A stretch of DNA of 64,000 nucleotides. Source: Planctomycetota bacterium. GTDB taxonomy: Bacteria; Planctomycetota; GCA-002687715; DRQF01. The stretch lies in the NCBI GenBank assembly GCA_020639295.1, contig JACKGY010000003.1:159625-223624 (forward strand), given 5' to 3'. The translations under genes were made by a program, and so were the position numbers. Of this stretch, positions 39,509 through 64,000 are shown piece after piece. Every line of letters begins with the position of its first letter. Positions within the stretch are counted from its first letter, which is position 1. Below the pieces are notes generated by a model, which was not told the origin of the DNA, ran no database searches, and saw nothing but the letters and a program-made list of their open reading frames with translations.

Positions 39509-39740
39509 CACGGCAACTCCTCTGGGGCCGGTCCGGGTTCGGGGACCGTGCTCTTCACGTCGGCATGCTAACACCCGGGACCACCGCGGTCAGTTTTTGC
39601 CGGCTCCTGGAAGTCATTTTGTGAACGTCTTTTAGGCCCGCTCGACTCGCCTGCGACGAGCTGTCCGGGCGCTGACCTTGGCGGCGGGAAAGGAGAAATT
39701 CTCGAAAGTCCGCTTGTCATCGGGCTCGATGTCTGGATAA

Positions 39741-39772
39741 CTACGACAGCTTTCGTACTACGACCGTCGTAG
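39741..39772 (+). promoter_or_regulatory. Candidate BlaI-type operator: two adjacent inverted repeats built on CTACGA/TCGTAG half-sites.
   Basis: CTACGAcagcttTCGTAc at 39741-39758, and the perfect palindrome CTACGACcGTCGTAG at 39758-39772, which ends 12 nt before the blaI-like ATG. Confidence 0.5.
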
Positions 39773-39783
39773 AAAGGGCAGAG

Positions 39784-43194: not shown

Positions 43195-43314
43195 CCCTTT
43201 CCTCGCGGCCGCCCCGGTCGGCCGCCCACGCGCGCCGCGGCGGAGACGAGCTTGCGGCCCGGGACCGCGAATCGGTAAACCTCCCTGGTTCGCGTCCGTG
43301 GAGGTTCTCCCTCG

Positions 43315-48273: not shown

Positions 48274-48304
48274 CCGCGACCGCCGCGGCCGCTTCGATCG
48301 GGGC

Positions 48305-49627
48305 ATGCGCAGCCCGATTCCCGGCATCCTCCTCCTGCTCCTCGCCTCGGCCCTCACGGCCCAGGTCGAGGAAGTCGACGCGGCCGACATCGATGCCCGC
48401 CTCGGCCTTCTCCTCGACGAGTACCTGCTGAGCGCCGACGACGACCGGGCGCGGGCGATCGAGAAGGAGATCGACGGGCTGCCGGAGGTGGACCTCGAGC
48501 GCGTCCTCGCCCGCCTGCGCGCGCCGATGTCCCGACCGCCTCGACCGGCCGGGGTACGTCGCCTCGAACTCCCTCTCGGCGGCGAGGGGCGCCGTTACGT
48601 CGGTTTCGTCGCGGTCCCCGAGGGCTACGATCCCGGCCGGAGCTGGCCGCTCTTCCTGACCGCGCACGGCACCGGCGGCGACGCCGAGGGCCCGCTCCAG
48701 ACGATGATGCCGCACGCGGCGCGGGCCGGGATGCTGGTGGCGAGTCTCCAGGAATGTCCGGAGCGTCGCGCCGAGGGTTGGGGCTACAGCGCCGAGGAAC
48801 GTCGGGTGCAGGAGGAGTTCATCCTCGCCATCCGGCGGGACTACCAGATCGATTCCCGCCGGATCTACATGATCGGCTGGTCGCGCGGCGGCCACGCCAG
48901 CTGGGACCTCGCCCTGAGGCGACCCGGTCTCCTGGCCGGCATCGGTCCCATCGTCGGCGGCGTGCCGGCCCGGGACCTCGCGCTCCTGCCGAACCTCCTC
49001 GGCACCCGCATCGATGCCGTGAACGGGGGCCGCGACCAGCCCGAACTGGTCCAGGCCGTCAGCGACGCCGCCACCCGCCTGCGCGAGCTGGGCGTCGACT
49101 ACCGGGGCCTGATCGATCCGGAGCGAGGTCACGACGTCTTCCTCGATCGACTGGCTCCGATGGTCGAGCATCTCGGGGCGCAGGTTCGACCCTTGGCCCC
49201 GGGGCGGATCGCCATCGCCTCCTGGGAGAAGGACCTCTGCCGCCACGACTGGCTGGCGATCGCCGGTTTCGAGGCGAAGCTCTACAAACCGGGGGCCCGG
49301 ATCACGATCCCCGGCGTCGCGAAGATGGGGGCGGAGGAGCGGCGTCGGGCCTGGCTCGAGGCGGTCGAAGCCGGGACCGCGCGGCTCGAGGCCGAAGTCC
49401 TCGACCAGAACAAGATCCGGATCACCGCGCATAAGGTCAAACGGGTCAAGATCTTCCTGCCGCCGACCGGGATCGATCTGGCGCAGCCGGTGGAGATCCT
49501 GCTGGGTGAGAAGAGTCTCAGGAAGAGCCGCATCAAGGGCTCGATCCGTGACCTCTTGCGCTCGGCCCGGGCGGCGCGCGACCCCTTCATGGCCTATCCG
49601 GCCAGCGTCGAGCTGAGCCTGCCCTGA
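48305..49627 (+). CDS. Secreted alpha/beta-hydrolase (esterase/PHB-depolymerase-like).
   Basis: Signal peptide MRSPIPGILLLLLASALTAQ. LFLTAHGTGG and the GWSRGG elbow are present. It is paralogous in layout to the gene at 19880-21289. Confidence 0.65.
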   Translation: MRSPIPGILLLLLASALTAQVEEVDAADIDARLGLLLDEYLLSADDDRARAIEKEIDGLPEVDLERVLARLRAPMSRPPRPAGVRRLELPLGGEGRRYVGFVAVPEGYDPGRSWPLFLTAHGTGGDAEGPLQTMMPHAARAGMLVASLQECPERRAEGWGYSAEERRVQEEFILAIRRDYQIDSRRIYMIGWSRGGHASWDLALRRPGLLAGIGPIVGGVPARDLALLPNLLGTRIDAVNGGRDQPELVQAVSDAATRLRELGVDYRGLIDPERGHDVFLDRLAPMVEHLGAQVRPLAPGRIAIASWEKDLCRHDWLAIAGFEAKLYKPGARITIPGVAKMGAEERRRAWLEAVEAGTARLEAEVLDQNKIRITAHKVKRVKIFLPPTGIDLAQPVEILLGEKSLRKSRIKGSIRDLLRSARAARDPFMAYPASVELSLP

Positions 49628-50787: not shown

Positions 50788-52077
50788 ATGACCCGTCTTC
50801 CAGTCCCGATCATCCTCGTCGTCCTGCTCGCGGCCCAGCTCCGGCTCGTCGCCCAGGACGAAGCCGTCTGGGTCCTGGTGGATCACGGTCGCGTCCTCAC
50901 GGCCGACGCGGCTCGATCCGAAGGCTACTTCGAGCGCGACGGCACCTGGCTCGAGAAGCGCTGGAAGAAGAAGGTCGCCGGCTGGGAGCGCATCGATCGC
51001 AAGCACTCCGAGTGGTCGGACCCCTGGAAGACCAAGAGCAAGCACTACCGGATCATCACCAACCTGCCCGCGCACCTGGTCGAGACCGAGGTCTCGCCCT
51101 TCCTCGACGCGCTCTTCGAGGCCTACGGCAAGTTCTTCAAGGACGAGTTCGGCATCGCGGCGCGCTCGGCGGACAACAAGTTCATCAACGTCCACAAGAG
51201 CATCGAGGACTACGCGGTCAACACCGGCGGCCGGTCGGTGGAGGAGGCGCGTTACAACCCCGGCTTCATCCAGGGCGGTTCCGAGCTGGTCGTCTACTAC
51301 GACCGAGACGAGCCCGAGGTCTTCTTCAACACGGTGATGCACGAGAGCGCGCATCAGTACATCCAGGCGCTCTATCCCGGGGCGGCCTTCCCGATCTGGA
51401 TCGATGAGGGCCTGGCCACCTACTTCGAGGGCTGCCAGTACTCGCGTTCGCGTCAGGAGTTCATCGTGGGCCATCTACCCACGGAACGGCTCTTGAGCGC
51501 GCAGCACAGCCTCGACGAGAATCCCGGGGCTTCGATCGGCAAGCTCTTCCTCAACGTGCCGCGGACCCGCTTCGGTGCCCGCGAGTACGCCCTGGCCTGG
51601 AGCTTCATCCACTACCTGACCCACGGCGAGGGCGGCAAGTGGCGCCGCCACTTCGTCACCTTCCTGAAGGAGATGAACGGGGCGGGCACCAAGCTGTCGC
51701 CGAGCGAGGTCTTCGCCAAGATCTCCGGCAAGTCCTTCGCCGAGCTCGAGGAACCCTGGAAGGCGCACGTTCGCGCGCTGAAGGGCACGCGGCCGGAATG
51801 CTGGGTCGTGGGCGTCGAGGGCGACGCCGCCGCGCTTGCTTCCTTCCGGCTCCAGCCCGGTGACCGGATCATCCAGCTCGACGGGCAGAACGTGGTCAAT
51901 GCCGAGCACTTCGCCGAGCTCTGGAGCGGGCTGGCGGAGGGCGCCGAGATCGCCCTGGTCCTGAGTCGCAAGACCGACGCCGGTCGCAGCCGCGTGGGCG
52001 TGATCACCCGCAAGGAAGGCGAACAGGCGCCGGCCGTTCGCAACATGATCTCGCGGGAGGGCAGCCTGATCGACTGA
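50788..52077 (+). CDS. Secreted putative metallopeptidase (DUF1570-like, HExxH) with a C-terminal PDZ domain.
   Basis: Signal peptide. MHESAHQY...IDEGLATYFE matches the DUF1570 pattern. The C-terminal part is PDZ-like (LQPGDRIIQLDGQNV). Confidence 0.65.
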   Translation: MTRLPVPIILVVLLAAQLRLVAQDEAVWVLVDHGRVLTADAARSEGYFERDGTWLEKRWKKKVAGWERIDRKHSEWSDPWKTKSKHYRIITNLPAHLVETEVSPFLDALFEAYGKFFKDEFGIAARSADNKFINVHKSIEDYAVNTGGRSVEEARYNPGFIQGGSELVVYYDRDEPEVFFNTVMHESAHQYIQALYPGAAFPIWIDEGLATYFEGCQYSRSRQEFIVGHLPTERLLSAQHSLDENPGASIGKLFLNVPRTRFGAREYALAWSFIHYLTHGEGGKWRRHFVTFLKEMNGAGTKLSPSEVFAKISGKSFAELEEPWKAHVRALKGTRPECWVVGVEGDAAALASFRLQPGDRIIQLDGQNVVNAEHFAELWSGLAEGAEIALVLSRKTDAGRSRVGVITRKEGEQAPAVRNMISREGSLID

Positions 52078-52153: not shown

Positions 52154-53794
52154 ATGCGCCTTCGAAATCTCCTGCTCCTCGTCGTCGTCCTCGCCCTCGC
52201 TCCCGCGCTCTCGGCCCAGGAACACGGTGCCGGGGCCGGAGCCGGGTCGCCCCAGATCGCCCCGGCGCCGATCGGCATGCCGGGATGGGAGGTCACCAGC
52301 AGCCCGCCCCTGCCGATCAAGGAGACCTTGAGCCGGTCGGGTCAGTTCTACTTCGATCATCTGAAGCAGCTCACGCCCGGTCAGACGACCGCGCTCTGGC
52401 TCGGCCTGGTCACGATGCTGGTCCTGGCCTTCGACTGGAGTCGCTGGCTGCGACCCCGCAACCTCGTCCTGGTCCTGCTCTACGGACCGGCGCTGCTGTT
52501 CTTCGACCTCGATGCCCAGAGCACGCAGTTCGCCGATCCGGTGGCCTGGTCTCGCTTCCGGCTGATCACCACCGGCATCTTCGGCATGCAGGTCCTGAGC
52601 CTCGGCTGGGCGCTCTTCGCCCGGCTGCGCGGCGGCAGCGGGCAGTCCTTCTTGCCGCTACGGGCGCTCCGGGTCCTGGCACTGCTCTTCCTCGGTCTCA
52701 CCCTGGCCTCGAGCATCGTGGGCGAGGGTGCCGACTCGTCGATCTACACCAACTTCGGCACCCAGCGCATGCGCGAGCGCGGCAAGCTGCCCTATGGTGA
52801 TCCCTGGCTGGCGCGCGGTACCGCCTGCTCCTACGGCCCGGCCATCTACCTGATGATCCTGCCGGCGCAGCTGATCCTCGATCGCGAGCCTCTCAACGAG
52901 GCGGTCGATCTGCCGACGACCTACGAGCGCAGCCGGGGCATGCCGGTCCGGCTCACGGTCGCGGCACTCCTCCTGGTCACCTTCGTCGCCACGGTGATGC
53001 TCGGCGCCACGCTGGGGTCGCGGGAGGTCGGCTGGACACTGGCGGCCCTGGTCTTCTCGAGCCCCTTCACGCTGGGCATCGGCAGCGACCACTCGACCCT
53101 GGTCGGCGCGATGAACATCAGCGACACGGCACCCATTGCCTTCGTGATGCTCGCCCTCCTGTGGCTCGGCCGCCGACCGCTCTTGGCGGGACTCGCGCTC
53201 GGGCAGGCCACCGCCTGCGGCTTCTTTCCGATCCTGATGTTGCCGGCGATCGTCGTCTGGCTGAAGTCGCGCGGCCAGGGGCTGATGGCCTTCCTCGCCG
53301 CCTTCGCCCTGATCGGCCTGGCCTATCTCGCGCTGGTCTGGTTCGGAACCGAGACCCGCGGCGAGGAGAATCCCGCCCAGGTCTTCCTCGATTGCACCTT
53401 CGGCGTGCAGGAGCGGCCCAATGATCCCGCCGGCATGCGGGTCGGCTACGGCGACAGCCCCTTCGGGTTCTGGGGCAGCCATCCGCGCAGCCGCGACCTG
53501 ATTCTCGGCCGGCCGGGTTCGGGAGAGAACAAGCCCTGGAAGTGGCTCTTCCTCGGCCTGCTCGTCCTCATGACCTCGATCCGCGCGCGCCGGGCCGACC
53601 CGCGGCTCCTGATCGCCTCCTGCGGCGCCCTGGCGCTCGGCGTCCAGCTCGTCCGCCTCCACGCGGCCGGGGTCCACGTCATGTGGTATCAGCCACTCCT
53701 CCTGGCCGCGCTCCTGGCCATCCCGAGCCGCGTCGAGGCGCCGGGGGCCGGCGGCGAGGGAGAGGGTTCCGAGGCTCTCGAGGCCAGGGCGTGA
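52154..53794 (+). CDS. Polytopic membrane protein, possible GT-C-type glycosyltransferase.
   Basis: 546 aa, with at least 10 hydrophobic segments after a signal-like N-terminus. No soluble domain. The family assignment is inferential. Confidence 0.5.
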   Translation: MRLRNLLLLVVVLALAPALSAQEHGAGAGAGSPQIAPAPIGMPGWEVTSSPPLPIKETLSRSGQFYFDHLKQLTPGQTTALWLGLVTMLVLAFDWSRWLRPRNLVLVLLYGPALLFFDLDAQSTQFADPVAWSRFRLITTGIFGMQVLSLGWALFARLRGGSGQSFLPLRALRVLALLFLGLTLASSIVGEGADSSIYTNFGTQRMRERGKLPYGDPWLARGTACSYGPAIYLMILPAQLILDREPLNEAVDLPTTYERSRGMPVRLTVAALLLVTFVATVMLGATLGSREVGWTLAALVFSSPFTLGIGSDHSTLVGAMNISDTAPIAFVMLALLWLGRRPLLAGLALGQATACGFFPILMLPAIVVWLKSRGQGLMAFLAAFALIGLAYLALVWFGTETRGEENPAQVFLDCTFGVQERPNDPAGMRVGYGDSPFGFWGSHPRSRDLILGRPGSGENKPWKWLFLGLLVLMTSIRARRADPRLLIASCGALALGVQLVRLHAAGVHVMWYQPLLLAALLAIPSRVEAPGAGGEGEGSEALEARA

Positions 53795-55779
53795 CCGAGA
53801 CCGAGGTCGGGAAGGGGCGAGGCCGCGGTTTCGCCCTCGTCCTGCTGCTCCTCTCTGCCCCGGTGGCCTTCGCCCCCTCCCTGGTGGCGAAGATGGCCGC
53901 CCTGAGGCCGGTGATCGATCCCGCAAGGGTCTACTTCAGCGACCAGCAGCCGCTGCTCCTCTATCTCGTTCTGCCCCTCGGCCTGCTCGGCGCGACCACC
54001 GTCGTGCTCGGTCCGGGGCTCGTCCTCGCCCGGCTCCTTCGGCGCGGGCCGCTCGCTCCCGAGCGCCTCCTGGTCGACGCCCTGGGTTGGACCGCGGTCG
54101 TGGCGCTGGTTCTCTTGCTCGCGGGTGGTCTCCGGGATCTCGGCTTCGGGCCCCGAGCGCTGGTCCTGCTCGTCCTCGCGGCGCTCGGCCCCCTCCTTCT
54201 GCTCTGGCGGCGCCTGCCCGGGCCGGAGGCGCGCCTGGTCGGCGTCCGCGGTTTCTTCCTCTGGGTGGTCCTGCCCGCGCTGCTGCTGGGTGCCGTCGTG
54301 GCGCCGAAGATCTTCTGGGAGGCGGTAAACGGCGACGGCGCCCATGCCTACGAGGCCACGCGGCTCCTCCTGCACGGCCGGAGTCCCTTCTTCCCGGCGG
54401 GGGCCGGGACCATCAGCAACTACCCCGGTCCCAACTCGCTCCTGCAGGGCTTCCTCGGCGCTCCCTTCCTCGTCCTCCTCGGTGAGGACGTGGCCGGTCT
54501 GCGCTGGCTCGCGATCCTGGCGCTGGCCGGACTGGTCAGCGTGATCCGCCTCCTGTTGCCGGAGGATCTCCGCCGCCACGCCGGCCCCAACATCCTGATC
54601 TGGGTCGTGCTCCTGGCCGTCTTCTCGGCCCTCGGCTGGTCGGCGGGCTATGATGCCTACGCCGCCGATCTCGCCTTGCCGGCGGCTCAGGATCTCCTGC
54701 TCGTCACCTTCTTCCTCGCCGCCTTCACCGCCTTCGTGCGCGGCGAGCGCCGGCGCTTCCTGGCCTTCGCCTTCCTGACGCTCACCTGCTCGCCGGGCGG
54801 CGGCCTGCTCCTGCTCTTCCTGCCGCCGGCGCGGTTGCTCGCGCGCGGACCACGGCCCTGGCGCGAGAGCCTCGAGCTACTCGGCCTCGTTCTCCTGGCG
54901 GTCCTCGCCCAGGCCCTGCTCGGCCAGGTCGCCCAGCGCTACTGGGGCATGGAGAAGGGCGGCGAGCACGGCCTGATGGCCCTGCTCAGGAAGCTCAGGT
55001 TCGTCGACCTCGGCGACTGGCGGCGCTGGCTGTGGCTGGTTCCGGGCGGGCTCTTCCCCCTGGCGATCTTCTTCAGGTTCGGTCGGGCCAACCGCGAGGC
55101 CCGGACGCTGGCGCTGGTCGGGCTGGCGAGCTTCCTCTTCTACTACCCGCTCCTGAAGACCAATCTGCACTACTTCGCGCCTGCGATGATCCTGCCCCTG
55201 GCGGCCTTCCTGCTCGCGCGCCGGACCGCCCTGGGCCGGCCCGGTTTCCTGGGTTGCCTCGCCCTCGGACTCGCCGCTCTCCTGCTTTCTCTGCCGACCT
55301 CGACCCGGATCGGCGAGGTGGCCCGGCTGGTCGGCGAGGATCTCGACCTCGGAGGCCAGGACGGCTACGACAGGCTCGATCCCGCGGCCTATGCCGCCGT
55401 GGATCTCGTGCCCCTGCTGATTCCGGCCGAGCACGAGGTCGGCGTTCCGGCGGCCTTCCTCGGCATCTCGCCGCTCGCGATCGCCTATCATTCCAGGCGC
55501 GCGCCGGTTGCGGTCGACAAGAACCTGTCGATCCGGTCCGTGATCGCGCCGGTCCCGCCCGACGGTCGCGAGATCGGTCGTGACGCGGCCTTCGTGGCCC
55601 GGGTACGCGACCCGGAGGCCTGGGAGAAGATGCGTCGGCGGCGCCTGCCGGACTGCCGTGGGCAGGCCTTCCTTCTGGTCGATCGCGAGCGTCTGTTCGG
55701 CTCGCACGAGCTGGAAAGGGCCCCCGGGGTGATGGACTTGGGCAAGCTGCGGGATATCCTGACCGGCGCCTCGCGCTGA
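53791..55779 (+). CDS. Polytopic membrane protein, possible GT-C/ArnT-PMT-like glycosyltransferase.
   Basis: GTG at 53791 overlaps the preceding stop (GTGA). 662 aa with many TM segments and a C-terminal soluble region of about 150 aa. Confidence 0.5.
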   Translation: MTETEVGKGRGRGFALVLLLLSAPVAFAPSLVAKMAALRPVIDPARVYFSDQQPLLLYLVLPLGLLGATTVVLGPGLVLARLLRRGPLAPERLLVDALGWTAVVALVLLLAGGLRDLGFGPRALVLLVLAALGPLLLLWRRLPGPEARLVGVRGFFLWVVLPALLLGAVVAPKIFWEAVNGDGAHAYEATRLLLHGRSPFFPAGAGTISNYPGPNSLLQGFLGAPFLVLLGEDVAGLRWLAILALAGLVSVIRLLLPEDLRRHAGPNILIWVVLLAVFSALGWSAGYDAYAADLALPAAQDLLLVTFFLAAFTAFVRGERRRFLAFAFLTLTCSPGGGLLLLFLPPARLLARGPRPWRESLELLGLVLLAVLAQALLGQVAQRYWGMEKGGEHGLMALLRKLRFVDLGDWRRWLWLVPGGLFPLAIFFRFGRANREARTLALVGLASFLFYYPLLKTNLHYFAPAMILPLAAFLLARRTALGRPGFLGCLALGLAALLLSLPTSTRIGEVARLVGEDLDLGGQDGYDRLDPAAYAAVDLVPLLIPAEHEVGVPAAFLGISPLAIAYHSRRAPVAVDKNLSIRSVIAPVPPDGREIGRDAAFVARVRDPEAWEKMRRRRLPDCRGQAFLLVDRERLFGSHELERAPGVMDLGKLRDILTGASR

Positions 55780-55811
55780 CCACATCCAAGGGAGCCTCGG
55801 ACACGTCGACG

Positions 55812-56504
55812 ATGCAAAGACCGAACAGCAACATCACGGTCCAGTTCCAGCAGGAGTACTTCAGGACCCGCTTCGTCTACGACCCGCGCCGTGCGCCCGT
55901 CTGGCGGGAGGTGGCCCGCTGGATCCAGAAGAAGTACGTTCCCGACGGGGCGCGCGTCCTCGACCTCGGCGCCGGCTACTGCGACTTCATCAACGCCATC
56001 GACAACGCCAGCGAGCGCCACGCCGTCGACATCTTCGAGCGACTCTCCGAGTACGCGGGGGAGGGCGTCAAGCCGACGGTCGCCAACTGCACCGATCTCT
56101 CCTTCCTCGCCAACGACTCGCTCGACGTGGTCTTCGCCAGCAATCTCTTCGAGCACCTGACCCACGACGAGCTCCTCGTCTGCATCGACGAGGTCCGGCG
56201 GGTCCTGCGCCCGAAGGGACGGCTGATCCTCATGCAGCCGAACTTCAAGTACTGCTACAAGACCTACTTCGACGACTACACCCACCTGCAGATCTTCACC
56301 CACATGGGGCTCTACGATCTGCTCGAGATGGCCGGCATGCGGGTCTCGGCCTGTCACCCCAAGTTCATGCCGGTGAACATGAAGTCGACCCTGAAGCTGA
56401 ACCTCCCCTGTCTCGGTTTGATCGTGCGGGCCTATCTGCACTCGCCGATCAAGCCGCTCGCCGGGCAGATGCTGATGGTCGCCGAGAACGAGTGGGTCGA
56501 CTGA
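55812..56504 (+). CDS. Class I SAM-dependent methyltransferase.
   Basis: 230 aa. VLDLGAGYCDF (motif I), DVVFASNLFEHL and RVLRPKGRLIL. Confidence 0.85.
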   Translation: MQRPNSNITVQFQQEYFRTRFVYDPRRAPVWREVARWIQKKYVPDGARVLDLGAGYCDFINAIDNASERHAVDIFERLSEYAGEGVKPTVANCTDLSFLANDSLDVVFASNLFEHLTHDELLVCIDEVRRVLRPKGRLILMQPNFKYCYKTYFDDYTHLQIFTHMGLYDLLEMAGMRVSACHPKFMPVNMKSTLKLNLPCLGLIVRAYLHSPIKPLAGQMLMVAENEWVD

Positions 56505-56666
56505 CGCGCGGCGCTTCGGCGGAGCCCCTGGACTTGCTGGGCTGCAATCGAGACGAACTCTCGCCGGGCGTCGGGTCCATTTGACGCAGAGCGAAGCCGA
56601 CATTTCTCTTCCGAAAAACTTGCCGCCCCGGAGAGACTGCTGGAGCGACAACACGGAGGAGCGAAC

Positions 56667-58355
56667 ATGAAGCTCTCGAAGATCATCGCAGTCGTCGTCA
56701 CGGGTATCTGCCTTGTGCTGCCGCTGGCGGCGCAGGGAGGCCCCGGCCCGGGTCCCGGACCCGGCCCAGGCCCCGGCCCGCAGATTCCGCCGGTTCCGGT
56801 TCCCGCGGCGAACCCCCTCACCCCCGAGAAGGCCATTTTGGGCAAGATCCTGTTCTGGGACGAGCAGCTCAGTTCGTCCGGAACGACGGCCTGCGGCACC
56901 TGCCACCGCGCCGACTTCGGCGGCGGTGACGGCCGCGTGGCCCTGAATCCGGGCCTCGACGGTCTCTTCGGCACCCCGGACGACTCGCGCGCCTCGCCGG
57001 GCGTCGTGCGTTCGGACGTCCTGAACAACTACCTCGCCGACCCGAACTTCGGGCTCGAGGTCCAGGTGACGCCCCGGGCCTCGCCGACGATGATCATGGC
57101 GGCCTACGCCCCGTCGATGTTCTGGGACGGCCGGGCCGGTCCGGTCTATACCGATCCGATCACCGGTGCCGTCCTGATCAACGGGGGCGGCGCCCTCGAG
57201 AACCAGGCCCTCGGCCCGCCGCTCGCCGATCGCGAGATGGCGCACGACCTGCGCGGCTGGCCCGAGATCCTGACCAAGCTGGGCCAGGCGACGCCGATGA
57301 AGCTCGCCACCAATCTGCCCGCGGACATGGTGGCCGCGATCGCGACCAACCCGACCTATCCCGATCTCTTCACCGCCGCCTTCGGCGACAACCAGATCAC
57401 CGTCAGTCGCATCGCCTTCGCGATCGCGAGCTACGAACGGACCCTGATCTCGGATCAGACTCCCTTCGACGCCTTCCTCTCCGGCGTGGCCGGGTCGATG
57501 ACGCAGAACCAGATGATCGGCCGCCAGGTCTTCGTGACCAACGGCCAGTGCATCAACTGCCACCTCGGCCCGCTCACCACCGATCACAGCTTCCGCAACC
57601 TGGGACTCCGGCCGATCGCGGAGGACGAGGGCCGCTTCGTGGTCACCGGCAATCCGGCCGATCGCGGCCGCTTCAAGGTCCCGACCCTGCGCAACGCGGC
57701 GCTCCGGCCGCGCTTCATGCACAACGGTCAGTTCCAGAGCCTGAGCCAGGTGGTCGCCTTCTACGCCGGCGGTGGCGGGCCCTTCACGATCAACAAGGAC
57801 CCCATCCTGGCCGCGATCACGATGACGCCCTTCGAGCAGCAGGCGGTGGTGGACTTCGTCCAGAACGCGCTGGTCGATCCCCGCGTCGCCGCCGGGCAGT
57901 TCCCCTTCGATCGGCCGACCCTGGCCAGCGAGAGCGGGCTCGGCGCCTGGGCGGAAGTGGGTTTCGGAGTCCCCGGCAGCGGTGGCTTCATGCCGCGCTT
58001 CCTGAGCGACTCGCCGCCGGCCATCGGCAACAGCGACTTCCGCATCGGGCTCCGGGACGCGCTGGGCAACACCCAGGCCTGGCTCCTGTTCTCGAGCACG
58101 GTGGCCCCAATCGGTCTCGATCTGGGCGGGATGCCGATCTACACCGACCCCAACGTCCCCGAGTTCGGCTTCTGGACCTACTGGCTCAACGGTTCCGGCC
58201 CGGGTGCCGGTTACACCACGGCCCAGGTACCCATTCCAAACCAGCCCTGGCTCGTCGGCTTCAACTTCGTGCTCCAGTGGCTCGTCTACGACCCGGCCGC
58301 GCCCACTTCCTACGGCTACTCCGGCACGGCGGGCGCCACGATCACGATCTTCTGA
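56667..58355 (+). CDS. Di-haem cytochrome c peroxidase (CCP/MauG family) with an N-terminal (Gly-Pro)n linker and a C-terminal extension.
   Basis: Signal peptide, then GGPGPGPGPGPGPGPQ at 56736-56780. CGTCHR and CINCHL haem sites, plus FWDGRA, FKVPTLRN and FMHNGQ. About 140 extra C-terminal residues. Confidence 0.85.
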   Translation: MKLSKIIAVVVTGICLVLPLAAQGGPGPGPGPGPGPGPQIPPVPVPAANPLTPEKAILGKILFWDEQLSSSGTTACGTCHRADFGGGDGRVALNPGLDGLFGTPDDSRASPGVVRSDVLNNYLADPNFGLEVQVTPRASPTMIMAAYAPSMFWDGRAGPVYTDPITGAVLINGGGALENQALGPPLADREMAHDLRGWPEILTKLGQATPMKLATNLPADMVAAIATNPTYPDLFTAAFGDNQITVSRIAFAIASYERTLISDQTPFDAFLSGVAGSMTQNQMIGRQVFVTNGQCINCHLGPLTTDHSFRNLGLRPIAEDEGRFVVTGNPADRGRFKVPTLRNAALRPRFMHNGQFQSLSQVVAFYAGGGGPFTINKDPILAAITMTPFEQQAVVDFVQNALVDPRVAAGQFPFDRPTLASESGLGAWAEVGFGVPGSGGFMPRFLSDSPPAIGNSDFRIGLRDALGNTQAWLLFSSTVAPIGLDLGGMPIYTDPNVPEFGFWTYWLNGSGPGAGYTTAQVPIPNQPWLVGFNFVLQWLVYDPAAPTSYGYSGTAGATITIF

Positions 58356-58527
58356 CCTGCAACCAGGGCCCAACTGGGCCGTCCAAGGGGGCGCCTCTCA
58401 CCCGCGAGGCGCCCCCGCTTCCGTTCCGGGCGTGGCGGCTTGTCGCTCTCGTTTCCCTCCCCCCGAGTCATTAACATGGCCAGATCCCGGCCCCGCCCGG
58501 GTCCCCTGGTCCTGTCGAGATGCTGCC

Positions 58528-59670
58528 TTGTCCGTTCCGGTCGGAAAGCCCCTGATCTGGCTCCTCCTCGGGGAGAAGCTGGGCGACAACGCTCAGGTCG
58601 AGCTGGTGGCCGAGCACCTGGGCTTGCCCTACGAGAGCCGGCGGCTGGTGATGCAGGAGGCCTGGAAGCTGGGCAAGCCCGGCTTCGCCGCCAACCTGGA
58701 CCACATCGACCTGGAGGCCTCCGATCGCCTCGAGGCACCTTGGCCCGACCTGATCCTGACCGTGGGGCGCCGGCCGGCGATGGCGGCGCTCTGGGTCAAG
58801 GAGCAGAACGCCGGCCGCACCCGGATCGTGCTCTTCGGACGGCCGAAGAAGTGGCTCGATCGCTTCAGCCTCGTGGTGGCGCCGGCCCAGTACGGGATTC
58901 CCCCGGCGGCCAACGTCCTGCCCATCGAACTCCCGCTGATGAAGGTGGACGAGGCCCGCCTCGAACGGGGCCGCGCCGAGGCCGCGCAGATCCTGGCGGA
59001 CATGCCCAGGCCGATCACCGCCGTGCTGGTCGGCGGCCGGACGAAACCCTACCGTTTCGGGGCGAGCGAGGCGCGTGAACTCCTGAGCGAACTCGGGGCC
59101 CGCTGCGCCGCCGACGGTGGCAGCTTCTACTTCAGCACCAGCCGCCGGACCAATCCCGAGGTCCTCGAGGTCCTCGCCCGCGAGCTGCCCGCCAACGCCC
59201 GCCTCTTCCGCTTCGGCGACGAGGAGGCGATGAACCCCTACGCGGCCCTCCTGGCCGAGGCCGATCGTTTCGTGGTCACCGGCGACAGCATCTCGATGAT
59301 GGTGGAGGTGGCCCGGCTCGGCCGGCCCCTGGCCATCCACGAGCTGCCCATCGAGGGTGGCAACCTGACCGAATTCCTGCGCCGCGTCGCCTTCGGCCTG
59401 TCTCGCGGTGGCCTGCGCGGCCGGATCGGCATGCTGCTGTTCCGGCTCGGGCTCCTCGGCTTCGCCCGCGATCTCGGCGCCATGCACCGGCGGCTCTACG
59501 CCCTGGGCGCGGCTCGACCCCTGACCGTGGGGTTCTCGGCGCCGGACGGGCCCGCCGAACACGAGGGTGTCGCCGTCGCGGCCCGCATCCGCGCCCTGCT
59601 CGGTCCGGCCGAGGCACGGGCGGATCAGCTGGCGCCGTCAACCGCCTGCAACGAGGGAGCGACTGGATGA
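58528..59670 (+). CDS. ELM1-family (PF06258/COG3660-like) protein, paralogue 1.
   Basis: IWLLLGEKLGDNAQ, PWPDLILTVGRR, AVLVGG, STSRRT, NPY and VVTGDSISMMVE. The start is assigned to an in-frame TTG at 58528 by alignment with the paralogues, and is uncertain. Confidence 0.7.
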   Translation: MSVPVGKPLIWLLLGEKLGDNAQVELVAEHLGLPYESRRLVMQEAWKLGKPGFAANLDHIDLEASDRLEAPWPDLILTVGRRPAMAALWVKEQNAGRTRIVLFGRPKKWLDRFSLVVAPAQYGIPPAANVLPIELPLMKVDEARLERGRAEAAQILADMPRPITAVLVGGRTKPYRFGASEARELLSELGARCAADGGSFYFSTSRRTNPEVLEVLARELPANARLFRFGDEEAMNPYAALLAEADRFVVTGDSISMMVEVARLGRPLAIHELPIEGGNLTEFLRRVAFGLSRGGLRGRIGMLLFRLGLLGFARDLGAMHRRLYALGAARPLTVGFSAPDGPAEHEGVAVAARIRALLGPAEARADQLAPSTACNEGATG

Positions 59671-60599
59671 GAGTGGTCCTGAACAAGATCTGGCGTCACG
59701 CCTTCTCGGCGCTGACCTTCTTCCTGCCGGCGGAGAAGCGCATCGCCAACGAGAGGCGGATGCGGGGCAAGGAGGAGTTCCGCAAGCTGAACCTCGCCGA
59801 TTGCGTGATCGTGTCCTTCGGCAAGAGCGGTCGCACCTGGTTGCGGGTGATGATCTCGGGCTTCTACCAGAAGAAGTTCGGTCTGAAGGACAGCCTGATG
59901 ATCGGCTTCGACAACGCCCACCGGAAGAACCCGGGCGTGCCGAAGATCTTCTTCACCCACGACAACTACCTGAAGGACTTCACCGGCCACGACCAGGACA
60001 AGTCGGACTACTACGGCAAGAAGGTCGTCCTCCTGGCCCGTCATCCGGGCGACGTCGCGGTGTCGCAGTACTTCCAGTGGCAGCACCGCATGCGGCCGCA
60101 CAAGAAGAAGCTGAACGCCTATCCCGACCACGGCGACGAGGTCCCGATCTACGACTTCGTCGTCGGGGCGGAGGCGGGCCTGCCGAAGATCATCGACTAC
60201 ATGAATCTCTGGGCCGACGAGGCCGCGAAGATGAAGGAACTCCTCCTGGTCCGCTACGAGGACATGAAGAAGGACCCGAAGGCGACCCTCCGGCGCATCG
60301 TCGAGTTCATGGGCACGCCCGGCAGCGAGGCGGAGCTGGATCACGCGGTCGAGTACGCATCCTTCGACAACATGCGCCAGATGGAGCAGAAGAAGACCTT
60401 CTGGCTCTCGGGTTCGCGCATGGTGGCCAAGGACCCGAGCAATCCCCATTCCTTCAAGACGCGGCGCGGCAAGGTCGGGGGCTTCCGCGACTACTTCGAC
60501 GACGAGCAGGAGAAGGTCATCGGTGGCATGATCGACTCGACCCTGTCTCCCTTCTACGGCTATCTTCCCCAGGAGCGGGAAGGCGAGGCCTCCGCCTGA
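59667..60599 (+). CDS. PAPS-dependent sulfotransferase.
   Basis: 310 aa. SFGKSGRTWL matches the 5'-PSB loop (PKSGTTW-like). LLARHPGDVAVS and RRGKVGGFRDYF match the 3'-PB region. ATGA overlap with the ELM1 paralogue 1 stop. Confidence 0.82.
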   Translation: MRVVLNKIWRHAFSALTFFLPAEKRIANERRMRGKEEFRKLNLADCVIVSFGKSGRTWLRVMISGFYQKKFGLKDSLMIGFDNAHRKNPGVPKIFFTHDNYLKDFTGHDQDKSDYYGKKVVLLARHPGDVAVSQYFQWQHRMRPHKKKLNAYPDHGDEVPIYDFVVGAEAGLPKIIDYMNLWADEAAKMKELLLVRYEDMKKDPKATLRRIVEFMGTPGSEAELDHAVEYASFDNMRQMEQKKTFWLSGSRMVAKDPSNPHSFKTRRGKVGGFRDYFDDEQEKVIGGMIDSTLSPFYGYLPQEREGEASA

Positions 60600-60612
60600 T
60601 CGAGAAAGGGAC

Positions 60613-61560
60613 GTGATGAACAAGAACTGCGTCTTCATCCACACCAACCACAAGCAGATCCTCGGCGCGCTCGTGGCCGAGTACTGCCTGCGGCGGAACT
60701 CGGCCCGGCCGGACGACTTCGACGTCAAGCTGATCTGCACCGAGGACCACGCCTTCCTGAAGGAGATGGACGGCCAGAAGTACCTGCGCGACGGAGTCGA
60801 GCGGGTCTGGCTCTACGAGGATCTCCAGTCCTTCACGCCGCTCAGGTTCATGCCCCCGGAGCTGATGGGCTACGAGGGCCGCGCCGTCGTCATCGACCCC
60901 GACATCTTCGCGGTCGCCGACGTGATGGAGCTCTTCGACAAGGACATGGATGGCAAGGCGATCCTCTGTCGCATGCGTTCCGGGCCGAAGGGCTACATCG
61001 ACAAGTGCATGGCCAGCAGCGTCATGCTGCTCGACTGCGCCAAGCTCGGGCACTGGAAGTGCGAGGAGCAGTTCCGGGCCATGTTCCGCTTCGAACGCGA
61101 CTACCAGCCCTGGATCTGTCTCAAGCTCGAGGACCGCGAGACCATCGGCTTCTTCGAGAACGAGTGGAACGACTTCGACAAGCTCACCAGCGACACGAAG
61201 ATGCTCCACAACACGCGGCGGCGTACCCAGCCCTGGAAGACCGGCCTGCCGGTCGACTGGCGGCCGGCCGAGCGCTTCCGGCTGTTTCCGCCGGTCGCCT
61301 GGGTCATGCGCGCGCGTCGCAAGCTCTTCGGCGAGTACGCCTTCCTGGGCAACTACAAGCAGCACCCCGACCCGAATCAGGAGATCTTCTTCTTCGGCAT
61401 GCTCAAGGAGATGCTCGACAAGGGCCTGGTGAACGAGACGATGGTGCGCGAGCAGATGGCGAAGAACCACGTCCGCCACGATGCGCTCGAGGTCCTCGAT
61501 CGCACGCCGGAGCTGGCCCCGCCGGGCCGCTATCCCCTCGAGTCGCTGGCCGCTTCCTGA
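60613..61560 (+). CDS. Hypothetical nucleotide-diphospho-sugar transferase-like (GT-A, DxD) protein.
   Basis: 315 aa. N-terminal VFIHTNHKQILGALV and AVVIDPDIFAV (DxD-like) resemble GT8-type folds. The assignment is tentative. Confidence 0.4.
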   Translation: MMNKNCVFIHTNHKQILGALVAEYCLRRNSARPDDFDVKLICTEDHAFLKEMDGQKYLRDGVERVWLYEDLQSFTPLRFMPPELMGYEGRAVVIDPDIFAVADVMELFDKDMDGKAILCRMRSGPKGYIDKCMASSVMLLDCAKLGHWKCEEQFRAMFRFERDYQPWICLKLEDRETIGFFENEWNDFDKLTSDTKMLHNTRRRTQPWKTGLPVDWRPAERFRLFPPVAWVMRARRKLFGEYAFLGNYKQHPDPNQEIFFFGMLKEMLDKGLVNETMVREQMAKNHVRHDALEVLDRTPELAPPGRYPLESLAAS

Positions 61561-62630
61561 GGCGCCGCGGCGAGGAGGGCGCGAACGCGTCGCGTCACCA
61601 GTTCCAGATCCCGGGAGCCGTCATCCAGAGTGCTGGGTGCCGGCTTCTCGTCTTTTCCGAGCCAGCCGATCCGTCCCTCGGCTTCGAGCCGACGATGGAT
61701 GCGCATGGGGTCGCGGCGAAGTCGGCGCGGTGCCAGGAGACGTGACAGCCGCTGCACCAGCGGTCGGTAGCGCCAGCCGTCGCGATCCAGGAACCAGGGC
61801 GCCCGCCGCGAGCCGATGCGGGAATCGAAGACCTGGACCGGACGGCCGCTGGCGATGGCTTCGACCACCATCGAGATGCTGTCCGCGGTGACCACGAAAC
61901 GATCGGCGAGGGCGAGGTAGGCGGCGTAGGGGTTGTCGGGGTCGTCGGGCCTGAAGCGGTAGATCCGGGCGCGGGCGCCGAAATGCCGGTCGATGGTGTC
62001 GACCAGGCCGCTCGGCGTCCGGGCGCTGCTCGAGACCAGGAGGCTGCCGCCGACCCGTGCGAGCAGGGCGTCGAGCTCCGCGATCAGCCTGCTGACCCGC
62101 CGACCGGATAGCCGGAAGTCGCCGGCATTGCCGCCGAGCAACAGGGCGGTCCAGGGCCGGGGGAGGCCGGCGAGGGCCGGCTGGAGGCGCCGGGCGGCGT
62201 CCCGGGAGCGAGCGTGGTCGACTCGGTGGAGCGGGAGAGCGATCTCGACCACGCGCGAGCCGGAGGGGACCTGGTATTGCGGCGTGGTGACCACGAGATC
62301 CCAGTGCTCGGGCCGCGACCAGGGCCGTCCCAGGTGGACGATGCGGCAGCGACCGCCACTCGCCTCCTTGATCCAGCGCGCGATCGGCTCGTTGCGTCGA
62401 CCGGCACTCAGGACCAGGTCCGGCCAGGGCGGTTCGATGGCATCGGAGCGGTTCCGGTCGGTGCCGGCGAGGGTGGCGCCCAGGAGGCGGCCGACGAGGA
62501 GCTCCCAGGCGCGATAGCGCAGCCGCTTCTCGACCACCGGCTCGCCCAGGCTCTCGGCCAGCAGGCGGAGCTGGTTGTTGTCGCCTTGCTTCAGGCCGAG
62601 CAGCAGCCAGATCCGCGGCGAGCTCGTCAT
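61530..62630 (-). CDS. ELM1-family protein, paralogue 2.
   Basis: MTSSPRIWLLLGLKQGDNNQ, PWPDLVLSAGRR, ALLLGG, SSSARTP, NPY and VVTADSISMVVE. Its 3' end overlaps the convergent gene by 31 nt. Confidence 0.75.
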   Translation of the reverse strand: MTSSPRIWLLLGLKQGDNNQLRLLAESLGEPVVEKRLRYRAWELLVGRLLGATLAGTDRNRSDAIEPPWPDLVLSAGRRNEPIARWIKEASGGRCRIVHLGRPWSRPEHWDLVVTTPQYQVPSGSRVVEIALPLHRVDHARSRDAARRLQPALAGLPRPWTALLLGGNAGDFRLSGRRVSRLIAELDALLARVGGSLLVSSSARTPSGLVDTIDRHFGARARIYRFRPDDPDNPYAAYLALADRFVVTADSISMVVEAIASGRPVQVFDSRIGSRRAPWFLDRDGWRYRPLVQRLSRLLAPRRLRRDPMRIHRRLEAEGRIGWLGKDEKPAPSTLDDGSRDLELVTRRVRALLAAAPQEAASDSRG

Positions 62631-63721
62631 CCCTCGACTCCGTGCAGGAGGGCGAGGACGCGTAGGGCCGTGTCGCGTCGGGCATCGATCGCGATGCAGG
62701 TCTCGGGGTAGTCCTCGTCGCCGAGCCACTTCAGCTGGCGCGTCTCCAGCATCCGGTCGTGGGCGAGGCGAAGGTCGCGACCGAGCCGCCTCGGCCCCAG
62801 GGCGCACATCAGTCGATAGGCGCGCGTCGCGACCGTCTGATCGCAGGGGCCGGTGGCCGCGCCGCGGCGACGCATCGCCAGCTTTCCGGTGCCGAGATCG
62901 AAGGCGCGAACCGGAAGGCCGGTGGCCAGGGCCTCGGAGAGCATGGCGATCGAGTCGCCGGTGACGACGATCTCCTCGGCCAGGGCGAGGAAGCCGAAGT
63001 AGGGATTGTCCTCCCGCCGGTCGCGATGCCAGAGATGCACGACCTTCGGCTCCGCGATCAGGCGATCGAGCAGTTCGGCGGCGGCGGGGTCCGTACGCGA
63101 GCTCGTGGTCACCATGATGCTGCCGCCGAGCCGGGCCCGCTCCGTCTCGAGATCGGCCGCGAGCCTACGAGCGGCGTGGCGACCGAAGCACCAGCCGCCG
63201 CTGCGACCCCCCACGAGGACGGCCAGCCGGGGCTCCGGCAGGACCCCGAGCCGATCGGTCCAGGACCGCCGGGCCTCGGCCAGGCGCTCGGGGCCGATGC
63301 GGGTGATCGTCACCGGGTTGTGGAGTATCCGCGGGTGCTCGGGCAACCGGTACTGGGGTGTCGTCACCACGAGGTCGAAGGTCTCCGGCGGGCACCAGGT
63401 CCGACCGAGGAAGACGAGCTTGGTCCGGCCCCCCGAGCGGGCCTTGATCCAGCGGGCGACCGGCTCGTTCTTGGCGCCGGCCGAGATCAGCAGATCGGGC
63501 CAGGGTTCCGCGATCGGCGAGGAACGACGGCGGTCGACGCCACAGGACGAAGGCAGGCGGGCGAGGCTGATCGCGAAGCGCCAGGGTCGCGGATGGATGC
63601 GCTTCTCCTCGAAGTCGATGCCGCTCAGTTCGCGCAGGGCCTCGGCGAGACCGAGGATCTGCGAGCTCTCCCCGGCACGGTAGGAGAGCAGGGCCCAGAC
63701 CCGGGGGCCGCCAGTGCTCAT
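62627..63721 (-). CDS. ELM1-family protein, paralogue 3.
   Basis: MSTGGPRVWALLSYRAGESSQ, PWPDLLISAGAK, AVLVGG, TTSSRT, NPY and VVTGDSIAMLSE. ATGA overlaps at both ends. Confidence 0.75.
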   Translation of the reverse strand: MSTGGPRVWALLSYRAGESSQILGLAEALRELSGIDFEEKRIHPRPWRFAISLARLPSSCGVDRRRSSPIAEPWPDLLISAGAKNEPVARWIKARSGGRTKLVFLGRTWCPPETFDLVVTTPQYRLPEHPRILHNPVTITRIGPERLAEARRSWTDRLGVLPEPRLAVLVGGRSGGWCFGRHAARRLAADLETERARLGGSIMVTTSSRTDPAAAELLDRLIAEPKVVHLWHRDRREDNPYFGFLALAEEIVVTGDSIAMLSEALATGLPVRAFDLGTGKLAMRRRGAATGPCDQTVATRAYRLMCALGPRRLGRDLRLAHDRMLETRQLKWLGDEDYPETCIAIDARRDTALRVLALLHGVEG

Positions 63722-64000
63722 CTCGCGCCGCCCTCGCGCCGCACCAGGATCTGCTCGGCGAGAAGGAAGTCGTCGGCGCTGTCGACGTCGACCGCGAGTT
63801 CGGGGTGATCGACCACCACGGCCCCGATGCTCAGGCCCATCTTGCGACCCATCAACTCGAGGGCGCGGGGCAGGCTCAGGCTGTGGGTGATGAGTCCGAG
63901 CAGCGCCCGGGGGCCGAAGACGCCGGCGACGCGCCAGGGCTTCTTGCGCAGGTCCTCGACCCGGCGCCAGAAGGCGGCCGCGCGCCGCGCCCGGGCGTTG
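63718..64000 (-). CDS. Nucleotidyltransferase (MobA-like NTP-transferase) family protein. C-terminal fragment only; the 5' end lies beyond the window.
   Basis: My own minus-strand translation ends ...MGLSIGAVVVDHPELAVDVDSADDFLLAEQILVRREGGAR*. The xxDVDxxxDf ending is typical of NTP_transf_3 proteins. Its stop overlaps the ATG of paralogue 3. Confidence 0.45.
   Translation of the reverse strand, partial: NARARRAAAFWRRVEDLRKKPWRVAGVFGPRALLGLITHSLSLPRALELMGRKMGLSIGAVVVDHPELAVDVDSADDFLLAEQILVRREGGAR

Follow-up and report, generated by a model that had tools for sequence, protein, structure and literature searches.

Two gene groups at the right end of the window

We analysed 64,000 nucleotides of DNA from a Planctomycetota bacterium (GenBank assembly GCA_020639295.1, contig JACKGY010000003.1, positions 159,625 to 223,624; the window hereafter). 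Our subject is its right end, from position 52154 onwards, which an earlier note on this DNA had read as a single locus for a sulfated, methylated glycoconjugate. We number the genes g1 to g10 from 52154 rightwards and distinguish unit A (g1-g3) from unit B, the module that begins at 58528. These data suggest that unit B, which extends to about 67.5 kb, probably builds a glycosylated, sulfated anionic lipid-phosphate head group of the ceramide phosphoglycerate (CPG) type and that unit A is separate from it. The lipid product is most likely related to the recently discovered bacterial phospho-sphingolipids.

The window has a G+C content of about 69%, and its raw open reading frame (ORF) lists are consequently full of spurious frames. 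The gene set of 50-64 kb is the ORF listing filtered by G+C at third codon positions (GC3). Every gene that the earlier note had named between 52154 and 64000 was backed by both GC3 and the ORF listing and lies where it had been placed, and nearly all of the family calls hold. The note had also expected the locus to continue beyond the right edge, and it does: Logan contig L001, which is 100% identical to the window over an overlap of 2658 bases, adds 3469 bases. NCBI locus tags from H6807_00850 (g1) to H6807_00905 (the kinase described below) agree with the gene order.

On the plus strand, unit B opens with g5 (about 58528-59670; the start, inferred from homologue alignment and the sequence, is probably the TTG at 58528). 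An ATGA overlap couples g5 translationally to g6 (59667-60599), and g7 (60616-61560) follows. A minus-strand operon converges on these genes, and the 3' ends of g7 and g8 overlap by 31 bases. The operon begins past 64000 with a lipid kinase gene (65466-66500, 344 aa), followed by a gene for a 311-aa protein (64527-65462), g10 (63718 to 64530 in extended coordinates, with only its 3' end inside the window), g9 (62627-63721) and lastly g8 (61530-62630). Along it, 3 bases separate the first two genes and each of the next three junctions is a 4-base overlap, with ATGA at the g9/g10 and g8/g9 junctions. The convergent run with ATGA overlaps, two ELM1 genes and an NTP-transferase-type gene was thus described correctly beforehand. 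Upstream of the kinase gene and divergent from it, on the plus strand, lies a metallophosphoesterase gene (66685 to beyond 67467; Metallophos, E 2e-16). Scans of the region for sigma-70 promoters and terminators were uninformative.

The minus-strand operon carries genes of the Caulobacter CPG type

The genes past the edge of the window resemble those for ceramide (di)phosphoglycerate synthesis in Caulobacter crescentus, namely CpgB (CC_1160), CpgC (CC_1161), CC_1153, CC_1158, CpgA (CC_1159), CpgD (CC_1152) and LptC2/F2/G2. For CpgB, which has an LCB5/DAG-kinase domain and a GGDG motif, ceramide kinase activity has been proven biochemically (PMC10331486). CpgC, which has a Tam41/Mmp37 domain, is needed for the first phosphoglycerate (PMC11324152, PMC12275187). 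The second phosphoglycerate requires the MobA-like CC_1153, CpgA and CpgD, with a contribution from the phosphoesterase CC_1158 (PMC11324152 and its supplement, PMC12275187).

Unit B contains four of these six Cpg-type families. The kinase has a DAGK_cat domain (E 2e-8) and the GGDG motif, within VNGGDGT, and so belongs to the CpgB type. The 311-aa protein immediately downstream has no Pfam match on its own; its family profile matches the Tam41 structure 6ig2 (E 0.007) and nucleotidyltransferase domains, which places it as CpgC-type. g10 (270 aa; NTP_transf_3, E 4e-18) has the MobA-like protein TTHA0179 (2dpw) as its best solved relative, also at E 4e-18, and together with the metallophosphoesterase it supplies the CC_1153 and CC_1158 types.

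A related locus, L111, connects these genes to Caulobacter. Its order CDP-OH_P_transf, DAGK, Tam41_Mmp37 is exactly that of CC_1159-CC_1160-CC_1161, and it also carries AasR, CerR, a bCerS-like gene, NTP_transf_3, a CpgD-like gene, LptF/G and Metallophos. Its kinase is 34% identical to ours (E 5e-43), and its counterpart of the 311-aa protein, which has a weak Pfam Tam41_Mmp37 match, is 41% identical (E 3e-75). Its NTP_transf_3 protein, encoded beside the bCerS-like gene, is 42% identical to g10 (E 4e-71). A GNAT gene adjoins the NTP_transf_3 gene also in loci L002 and L093-L097. The earlier note had assigned g10 to sugar activation, but g10 is of the MobA-like CC_1153 type rather than a classical sugar-1-phosphate nucleotidyltransferase. 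We also considered g10 as CpgD and ruled this out, since it shows no relationship to the CpgD-type gene in L111.

The scanned genes of the window and of its extension include no CDP-OH_P_transf gene (CpgA type, a CDP-alcohol phosphatidyltransferase) and no NTP_transferase-type gene (CpgD type, a CTP:phosphoglycerate cytidylyltransferase). Because these two types were not found, unit B is not the pathway to ceramide diphosphoglycerate (CPG2) and at most shares its first steps. Conversely, the Caulobacter cluster lacks ELM1 genes, a GT8-like enzyme and a sulfotransferase, whereas unit B has three ELM1 genes and one of each of the others. Both systems would use soluble cytoplasmic enzymes on a membrane lipid to yield an anionic outer-membrane lipid. 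In Caulobacter the product is a diphosphoglycerate, while the predicted product of unit B is glycosylated and sulfated. Searches of PDB sequences with the 311-aa protein and the kinase returned nothing useful, and NCBIfam gave no specific name to any protein of unit B.

Three ELM1 proteins, a GT8-like protein and a sulfotransferase

The remaining genes of unit B encode candidate transferases. As the earlier note had it, g5, g8 and g9 are ELM1-family genes: all three match Mito_fiss_Elm1 (PF06258), with E values of the order of 1e-53 to 1e-59 (6e-53 for g5, about 1e-58 for g8 and 3e-57 for g9). They belong to three orthogroups that are conserved across phyla; among 44 large related loci, the g8 type occurs in 41, the g5 type in 33 and the g9 type in 15. 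In the planctomycete loci L058 and L109, g9 again directly follows the NTP_transf_3 gene. In profile comparison by hhalign, ELM1 aligned to glycosyltransferase family 4 (GT4) over 206 columns (probability 71.6%, E 3.5e-5), spanning the C-terminal Rossmann domain with its E-x-x-A-x-G-x-P-V helix. PF06258 is placed in the GT-B Pfam clan, and glycosyltransferase activity is predicted for the ELM1-family proteins GtrOC1, 14, 19 and 22 of the Acinetobacter baumannii lipooligosaccharide (LOS) outer-core locus (PMC4172580). These results agree with the several putative transferases of the earlier note; by their sequences the ELM1 proteins look like GT-B-like glycosyltransferases. The accompanying claim that bacterial ELM1 proteins have no defined function needs amending, since a role in the LOS outer core has already been predicted. 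A search of PDB sequences with g9 gave nothing useful, and the ELM1 profile found only spurious armadillo-repeat matches in the PDB.

g7 encodes a 314-aa protein for which we found no Pfam match (including Glyco_transf_8), no NCBIfam match and nothing useful among PDB sequences. Its family is large: there are 6510 homologues at E<=1e-3, none of which has a Pfam domain, and in species-representative genomes at least 570 contigs carry relatives, often as 2-4 paralogues per locus. Mean column identity is about 73%, and D95-P96-D97 and H199 are invariant. The AlphaFold2 model of g7 (pLDDT 80, pTM 0.81) has as its best Foldseek matches the GT8 structures 3tzt, GlyE, LgtC, XXYLT1, LARGE1 and glycogenin (E 7e-8 to 1e-5). 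The top 50 matches are essentially all of the GT8/GT24 type, with TM-scores of just 0.3-0.55. The DxD-bearing GT-A-like protein of the earlier note is thus recovered, with a predicted GT8-type fold and an invariant DxD. The predicted fold is consistent with a GT8-like (GT-A fold) cytoplasmic protein, possibly of a new family. Homologues in Gammaproteobacteria are 70-79% identical to g7; recent horizontal transfer was ruled out as the reason, as GC3 is native at 0.92 and the whole family is unusually conserved.

g6 carries a Sulfotransfer_1 domain (PF00685, E 9e-26) and both motifs for binding 3'-phosphoadenosine 5'-phosphosulfate (PAPS), the 5'-phosphosulfate-binding (5'-PSB) motif KSGRTW at residue 53 and the 3'-phosphate-binding (3'-PB) motif RHPGDVAVS at residue 125. 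It is therefore the PAPS-type sulfotransferase, ATGA-coupled to an ELM1 gene, that had been proposed. Loci centred on g7 homologues carry a median of 2.5 sulfotransferase copies. Known carbohydrate sulfotransferases of bacteria, for example rhizobial NodH/LpsS and mycobacterial Stf0, act on an envelope glycolipid or glycan. g6 shares with them the PAPS-type fold with 5'-PSB and 3'-PB motifs; unlike them, it is operonic with an ELM1 gene inside a sphingolipid-type cluster. The earlier note had proposed a search for PAPS synthesis genes. Family annotation of the window genes revealed no PAPS synthase, whereas L109 encodes a bifunctional ATP-sulfurylase/APS-kinase (PAPS synthase; L109:4060-5829) beside lptB-lptF-lptG and the module.

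No transmembrane segment was found in the ELM1, g6 and g7 proteins, which would therefore act in the cytoplasm.

Unit B is co-conserved with lipid synthesis and export genes

We collected 80 loci around g7 homologues in species-representative genomes, almost all from Gammaproteobacteria together with one Planctomycetia metagenome-assembled genome (MAG), and four more through protein look-ups. In the 47 loci that span 18 kb or more, we counted which genes accompany a g7 homologue within 10 kb. ELM1 genes occurred in 44/47 and sulfotransferase genes in 43/47; the conservation that the earlier note had proposed to check is thus strong for the ELM1, sulfotransferase and g7 genes. Tam41-like genes were present in 36/47, LptF in 31/47, the DAGK kinase in 29/47, LptG in 26/47, an MsbA-like ATP-binding cassette (ABC) protein in 21/47, acyl carrier protein (ACP) in 14/47 and Spt in 12/47. 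A 2-oxoglutarate (2OG)-Fe(II) oxygenase gene, whose product may hydroxylate the lipid or a sugar, was found in 28/47. By contrast, g1, g2, g3, g4 and g0 (the gene directly upstream of g1) each occurred in 0/47. In 39/44 g7 loci, one or more ceramide, Cpg or Lpt markers lay within 10 kb.

In individual genomes the two sets of genes are intermingled. Thiogranum longum and Gammaproteobacteria SG8_31 have ELM1, sulfotransferase and g7 genes interleaved with Spt, ACP and an AMP-binding acyl-ACP synthetase, and these loci also hold a CerR-type epimerase, a GNAT-type bCerS, LptF/G and an MsbA-like ABC. In L003-L006, Spt and ACP directly adjoin ELM1 and ABC genes. Metagenome relatives of the Tam41-like gene (L093-L097, L100) lie in the order AasR, CerR, ACP, Spt, (GT4), Tam41-like, kinase, Metallophos, LptF/G, bCerS, NTP_transf_3, ABC.

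The layout of unit B is kept in other planctomycetes. L058 (Planctomycetia) has ELM1, sulfotransferase, g7, a g7 paralogue and ABC on one strand, with kinase, Tam41-like, NTP_transf_3, ELM1 and methyltransferase genes on the converging strand and Metallophos divergent. L109, with about 80% DNA identity to L058, adds LptB, LptF, LptG and the PAPS synthase gene beside the module, and both loci carry an MsbA-like ABC there. L107, from a more distant Planctomycetota MAG, has LptB/F/G followed by the kinase (47% identity), Tam41-like and NTP_transf_3 genes, and on the other strand FA_desaturase, GT4, CCP_MauG, a g5-type ELM1 (49% identical to g5) and a sulfotransferase (64.5% identical to g6).

Three further features of these relatives deserve mention. 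The GT4 and FA_desaturase genes of L107 (L107:19076-21026) lie directly upstream of the CCP-ELM1-sulfotransferase run. The FA_desaturase family includes sphingolipid desaturases and hydroxylases, which hints at a lipid substrate. Many gammaproteobacterial copies of the module contain a Wzy_C gene (O-antigen-ligase/WaaL family), at L002:13362-14543 and in 16/47 g7-centred loci; it hints that a polymer may be ligated onto the lipid core, which would give an LPS-like molecule on a non-lipid-A anchor. In Gammaproteobacteria, conserved proteins of about 300 aa without a Pfam match are encoded at L004:2396-3307 (homologues in 18/47 loci) and L002:7795-8682.

As the earlier note had reported, the genes called in the window include no recognisable Wzx/Wzy or ABC exporter and no lipid A gene; an initiating phosphoglycosyltransferase was likewise lacking among those scanned. 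The sole ABC protein of the window is an ABC-F ATPase (43279-45105), and tblastn searches of the window and extension for AasR, LptF/G and MsbA returned only weak matches to ABC-F ATPases. The missing exporter is explained by the relatives, which carry MsbA-like and LptB/F/G genes beside the module. In this they again resemble Caulobacter, where LptC/F/G paralogues sit in the sphingolipid cluster (PMC11324152) and are, according to a preprint, needed to transport sphingolipids (bioRxiv 10.64898/2026.04.12.717747). One difference is that the relatives have an MsbA-like ABC in place of the Wzx-like CC_1166.

A lipid-anchored head group is the most probable product

A generic glycoconjugate, as first proposed, does not account for the genes past the window edge. 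A lipid-anchored, CPG-type phospho(sphingo)lipid head group fits unit B better because of the kinase, the Tam41-like protein and the metallophosphoesterase, and because relatives place these genes among Spt, ACP, CerR, bCerS, LptF/G and MsbA-like genes. From the observed families, folds, motifs, operon coupling, co-conservation and synteny we infer the substrates, the order of steps, a ceramide anchor in this genome and the route of export as follows. Assembly would take place on the cytoplasmic face of the inner membrane. The CpgB-type kinase would phosphorylate ceramide, by analogy, or possibly diacylglycerol to give a lipid 1-phosphate. The Tam41-like, MobA-like CC_1153-type and CC_1158-type enzymes would then convert or activate this lipid phosphate, as in CPG synthesis. 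The three ELM1 transferases and the GT8-like retaining enzyme would add sugars at the point where Caulobacter uses CpgA and CpgD, and g6 would sulfate the product with PAPS. In the relatives, the MsbA-like ABC would flip the product and LptB/F/G would export it to the outer membrane. More speculatively, in planctomycetes the periplasmic g4 protein might act on the exported product or protect it.

The export genes could also be read as ordinary lipopolysaccharide (LPS) export. The module would then decorate LPS, with the ELM1 and GT8-like proteins as transferases of the inner or outer core, g6 sulfating the core or lipid A, and the kinase, Tam41-like protein and nucleotidyltransferase serving some other LPS-related activation step. 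Several observations favour this rival and count against a CPG-type product: LptF/G, LptB and MsbA-like genes adjoin the module in relatives, ELM1-family GtrOC proteins are predicted in the A. baumannii LOS locus, the g7 fold matches GT8 enzymes such as LgtC that are LOS/LPS core transferases, and Wzy_C genes recur. In addition, a faint Kdo_hydroxy-like gene lies next to the PAPS synthase gene near the module in L109. LOS/LPS core assembly (the A. baumannii OC locus; LgtC, PDB 1g9r) is alike in that soluble ELM1 and GT8 transferases build step by step on a lipid acceptor at the membrane's inner face, with MsbA-type flipping and Lpt export to follow. We nevertheless consider an LPS role rather unlikely. 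No gene for lipid A or 3-deoxy-D-manno-octulosonate (Kdo) biosynthesis was found in the window or the loci examined; the acceptor genes of the module are instead a ceramide/lipid kinase and a Tam41-like gene. The ELM1 genes are translationally coupled to kinase, Tam41-like and NTP_transf_3 genes with ceramide-acting homologues in Caulobacter, Spt and ACP stand directly beside ELM1 and ABC genes in L003-L006, and the sulfotransferase is integral to unit B, unlike in LPS core assembly. The dedicated LptC/F/G paralogues of the Caulobacter sphingolipid cluster also count against an LPS role.

If the head group is of the CPG type, its anchor could still be a glycerolipid rather than ceramide, at least in Planctomycetota, with diacylglycerol leading to phosphatidic acid and on to a CDP-diacylglycerol-like intermediate. 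Searches by tblastn for Spt, ACP, CerR and bCerS found none in the 67.5 kb available from this genome, in contrast to the Caulobacter cluster, and none lies within 10 kb of the module in L058/L109 or L107, so that three planctomycete lineages show no ceramide genes near it. Tam41 itself, the structure (6ig2) matched by the 311-aa family, is a phosphatidate cytidylyltransferase, and CpgB shows comparable kinase activity on diacylglycerol in vitro (PMC10331486). Set against this, the kinase and Tam41-like pair lies inside ceramide-synthesis clusters in every non-planctomycete context examined, and nearly all cpgB-encoding genera carry sphingolipid genes (PMC10331486). Many Planctomycetota MAGs (138 from the Black Sea) encode Spt-like proteins, and the Black Sea lipidome contains sulfated ceramide derivatives of unassigned genetic origin (PMC11334938). 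A glycerolipid anchor therefore appears quite improbable to us.

Other points weigh against a CPG-type head group as the product of unit B. The glycosyltransferase nature of the ELM1 proteins rests on the Pfam clan and the 72% hhalign probability, and we know of no solved or characterised bacterial member of the family. The reactions that CpgC, CC_1153 and CC_1158 catalyse have, to our knowledge, not been established. Orthology with the Cpg genes was drawn through family membership and synteny in intermediary loci. Five of the 44 g7 loci have no lipid marker within 10 kb, and Cpg-type genes occur without ELM1, g7 or sulfotransferase genes in L093-L097 and L111; the two halves of the module are thus separable. 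The lack of Spt, ACP, CerR and bCerS genes near the module in planctomycetes, the activity of CpgB on diacylglycerol and the restriction of the g4 association, described next, to two planctomycete genomes belong with these points.

g4 is a probable lineage-specific accessory of unit B

g4 (56667-58355, plus strand) lies between the two units and encodes a CCP_MauG protein (E 4e-39) with CxxCH motifs at residues 76 and 295 and a hydrophobic N-terminal segment, in agreement with its earlier description as a secreted di-haem peroxidase-family protein. It also carries a C-terminal extension of about 170 aa. Against NCBIfam it scored 139 bits, well short of the cut-offs for both MauG (444) and MbnH (363). 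On sequence grounds, g4 would be a secreted member of the CCP/MauG family without a subfamily assignment, with an extra C-terminal domain.

The g4 homologue of L107 is 54.7% identical, including the C-terminal extension, and lies directly upstream of the g5-type ELM1 and sulfotransferase genes. The order g4-g5-g6 is therefore common to two divergent planctomycetes, while g4 is absent from the 47 mainly gammaproteobacterial loci and from L058. These data suggest that g4 is a probable lineage-specific accessory of unit B. A stem-loop with an 11-bp perfect G+C stem (58387-58416, plus strand) lies 32 bases past the g4 stop. The hairpin is kept in the centroid structure; the region is not stabler than shuffled sequences (z -1.26), which makes this weak evidence. 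The hairpin may be a terminator that parts g4 from g5, in which case the two genes would be on separate transcripts.

A second, shorter di-haem CCP_MauG gene (38282-39589, minus strand; E 1e-54) lies 17 kb upstream. It has an extra cytochrome c domain and differs in type from g4.

Unit A is an independent cassette

Unit A consists of two genes for polytopic membrane proteins and a methyltransferase gene, all on the plus strand. g1 (52154-53794, 546 aa, about 7 hydrophobic segments) and g2 (53791-55779, 662 aa, about 12 hydrophobic segments) are joined by a GTGA overlap. The earlier note had called both GT-C-like. The overlap is present and the predicted fold of g2 agrees with the call, but g1 gave only a sub-threshold match to PIG-U (E 0.0038; 16.8 bits, with the cut-off at 24.5), and its relationship to GT-C enzymes is unproven. 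g1 is a near-orphan: among 5.8 billion proteins we found a single homologue, P0122, which is 56% identical and comes from another Planctomycetes MAG. The possibility that g1 is a paralogue of g2 was ruled out (hhalign probability 0.8%).

g2 has 321 representative homologues and a conserved loop motif, PKFFWExFNGDGAHAxExxRLLL, in which W176 and D182 are invariant. Its AlphaFold2 model (pLDDT 89.5, pTM 0.93) was searched against the PDB with Foldseek, and the top 14 matches are all GT-C enzymes (AftA, ArnT, EmbB, ALG9, PglB, STT3), at modest levels of similarity (E 3e-3 to 0.2, TM-scores 0.30-0.39). Like ArnT (5f15), AftA (8if8), EmbB, ALG9 and PglB, g2 has a predicted polytopic fold, and its invariant acidic D182 lies in a loop that is conserved and precedes an amphipathic helix. 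Unlike them, it has no sequence match to a GT-C Pfam family, any other Pfam family or a PDB chain, and it is paired with a highly conserved methyltransferase; PDB sequence searches with g1 were equally unproductive. By its predicted fold, g2 is a putative GT-C-like membrane glycosyltransferase. The third gene, g3 (55812-56504), is an S-adenosylmethionine (SAM) methyltransferase gene, as had been stated: it matches Methyltransf_11 (E 3e-11) and also Methyltransf_25, 12 and 23.

Parts of unit A recur elsewhere. P0122 again precedes a g2 homologue (45% identity), adjoining carB and without other genes of the window. In L087, L088 and L090, g3 homologues (67-68% identity) lie directly downstream of g2 homologues (28-35%), and in L087 the pair is downstream of a Wzx-like flippase gene and a GT4 gene.

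These contexts bear on the single-locus reading, in which 52154-64000 would make a sulfated, methylated polysaccharide or glycoconjugate and the GT-C proteins would polymerise or transfer glycan outside the membrane. All the enzyme classes it needs are present and adjacent, g2 has a GT-C-like fold, the g2-g3 pair lies near flippase and GT4 genes in L087, and methyltransferase genes occur inside the module in L058 and L109. However, g1-g3 are absent not only from the 47 g7-centred loci but also from L058, L107 and L109; g1-g2 and g2-g3 recur in unrelated contexts; and tblastn gave no match between g3 and the methyltransferases of L058 and L109, which are thus not g3 homologues. The single-locus reading also sits poorly with a CC_1153-type g10 and leaves the lipid kinase and the Tam41-like gene unexplained. 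We regard it as very unlikely. Because g1-g3 are missing from the 47 loci and g1-g2 and g2-g3 recur in unrelated contexts, unit A appears, from gene order and content, to be an independent cassette separate from unit B. Its substrate is probably a lipid-linked sugar at the membrane's outer face, and it stands beside unit B by chance or through a loose functional association.

Implications of a glyco-sulfo branch

Unit B thus reuses the first half of the CPG pathway and swaps the second half for glycosyl- and sulfo-transferases. The anionic sphingolipids CPG and CPG2 were discovered recently and can partly substitute for LPS in Caulobacter. In the literature we found no description linking ELM1, the g7-type GT8-like family or sulfotransferases to bacterial sphingolipid clusters; the new part is the glyco-sulfo branch on a CPG-type anionic sphingolipid pathway. 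More tentatively, and with less confidence than in the head group itself, module B could represent an undescribed class of LPS-like outer-membrane lipids, with a ceramide-phosphate anchor, a conserved oligosaccharide core made by three ELM1 transferases and a new GT8-like family, several sulfates and dedicated MsbA and LptB/F/G paralogues. A WaaL-like ligase in some lineages, or the neighbouring GT-C-like/methyltransferase cassette in this genome, may extend this lipid.

On this reading, the LPS-like lipids would be common among marine Gammaproteobacteria (Halieaceae, Thiogranum, Chromatiales) and would also occur in Planctomycetota, bacterial ELM1 proteins would gain their first function, and some sulfur-containing sphingolipids of environmental lipidomes would have a genetic origin. 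If the head-group prediction itself holds, a sizeable group of marine bacteria, along with some planctomycetes, would carry a sulfated glyco-phospholipid or glyco-sphingolipid in the outer membrane, with a bearing on envelope charge, on interactions with phages and antimicrobial peptides, and on the sulfur and phosphorus economy of the cell. Bacterial ELM1 homologues and a large unannotated GT8-like family would then gain a testable function, and environmental sulfated sphingolipids would gain candidate genes. The mosaic nature of the window's apparent locus also matters for the design of knock-outs.

The rest of the window

The assignable genes of the rest of the window are housekeeping or regulatory. 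Those of 1-50 kb are unrelated to the two units and include a helicase, parts of an acyl-CoA carboxylase, malate dehydrogenase, two-component proteins, a class II ribonucleotide reductase, a cysteine desulfurase-type aminotransferase with an Fe-S cluster-assembly protein, glycine-cleavage T protein, the second CCP gene, a BlaI/BlaR1-like pair, the ABC-F ATPase and rpsU. Annotation of this part turned up no genes for PAPS, Spt, Lpt, Wzx/Wzy or lipid A. Several ORFs could be placed in no family; GC3-supported examples without a Pfam match at the thresholds used are 45465-47996 (minus strand, 843 aa), 48167-49627 (plus strand, 486 aa) and 23690-25501 (minus strand, 603 aa).

g0 (50788-52077, plus strand) encodes a DUF1570/peptidase-MA-like protein with a C-terminal PDZ domain, an architecture typical of planctomycetes, and is not co-conserved with unit A or unit B. 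At 39676-43001 (plus strand), a BlaI-like repressor gene (Penicillinase_R) precedes that of a 964-aa protein with a BlaR1 M56 peptidase domain, whose long C-terminal extension has a weak match to squalene-hopene-cyclase-like repeats. Lastly, in the single protein encoded at 21721-23523 (plus strand), a zinc ribbon is joined to a Ser/Thr protein kinase domain and to an FGE-sulfatase (sulfatase-modifying-factor-like) domain.

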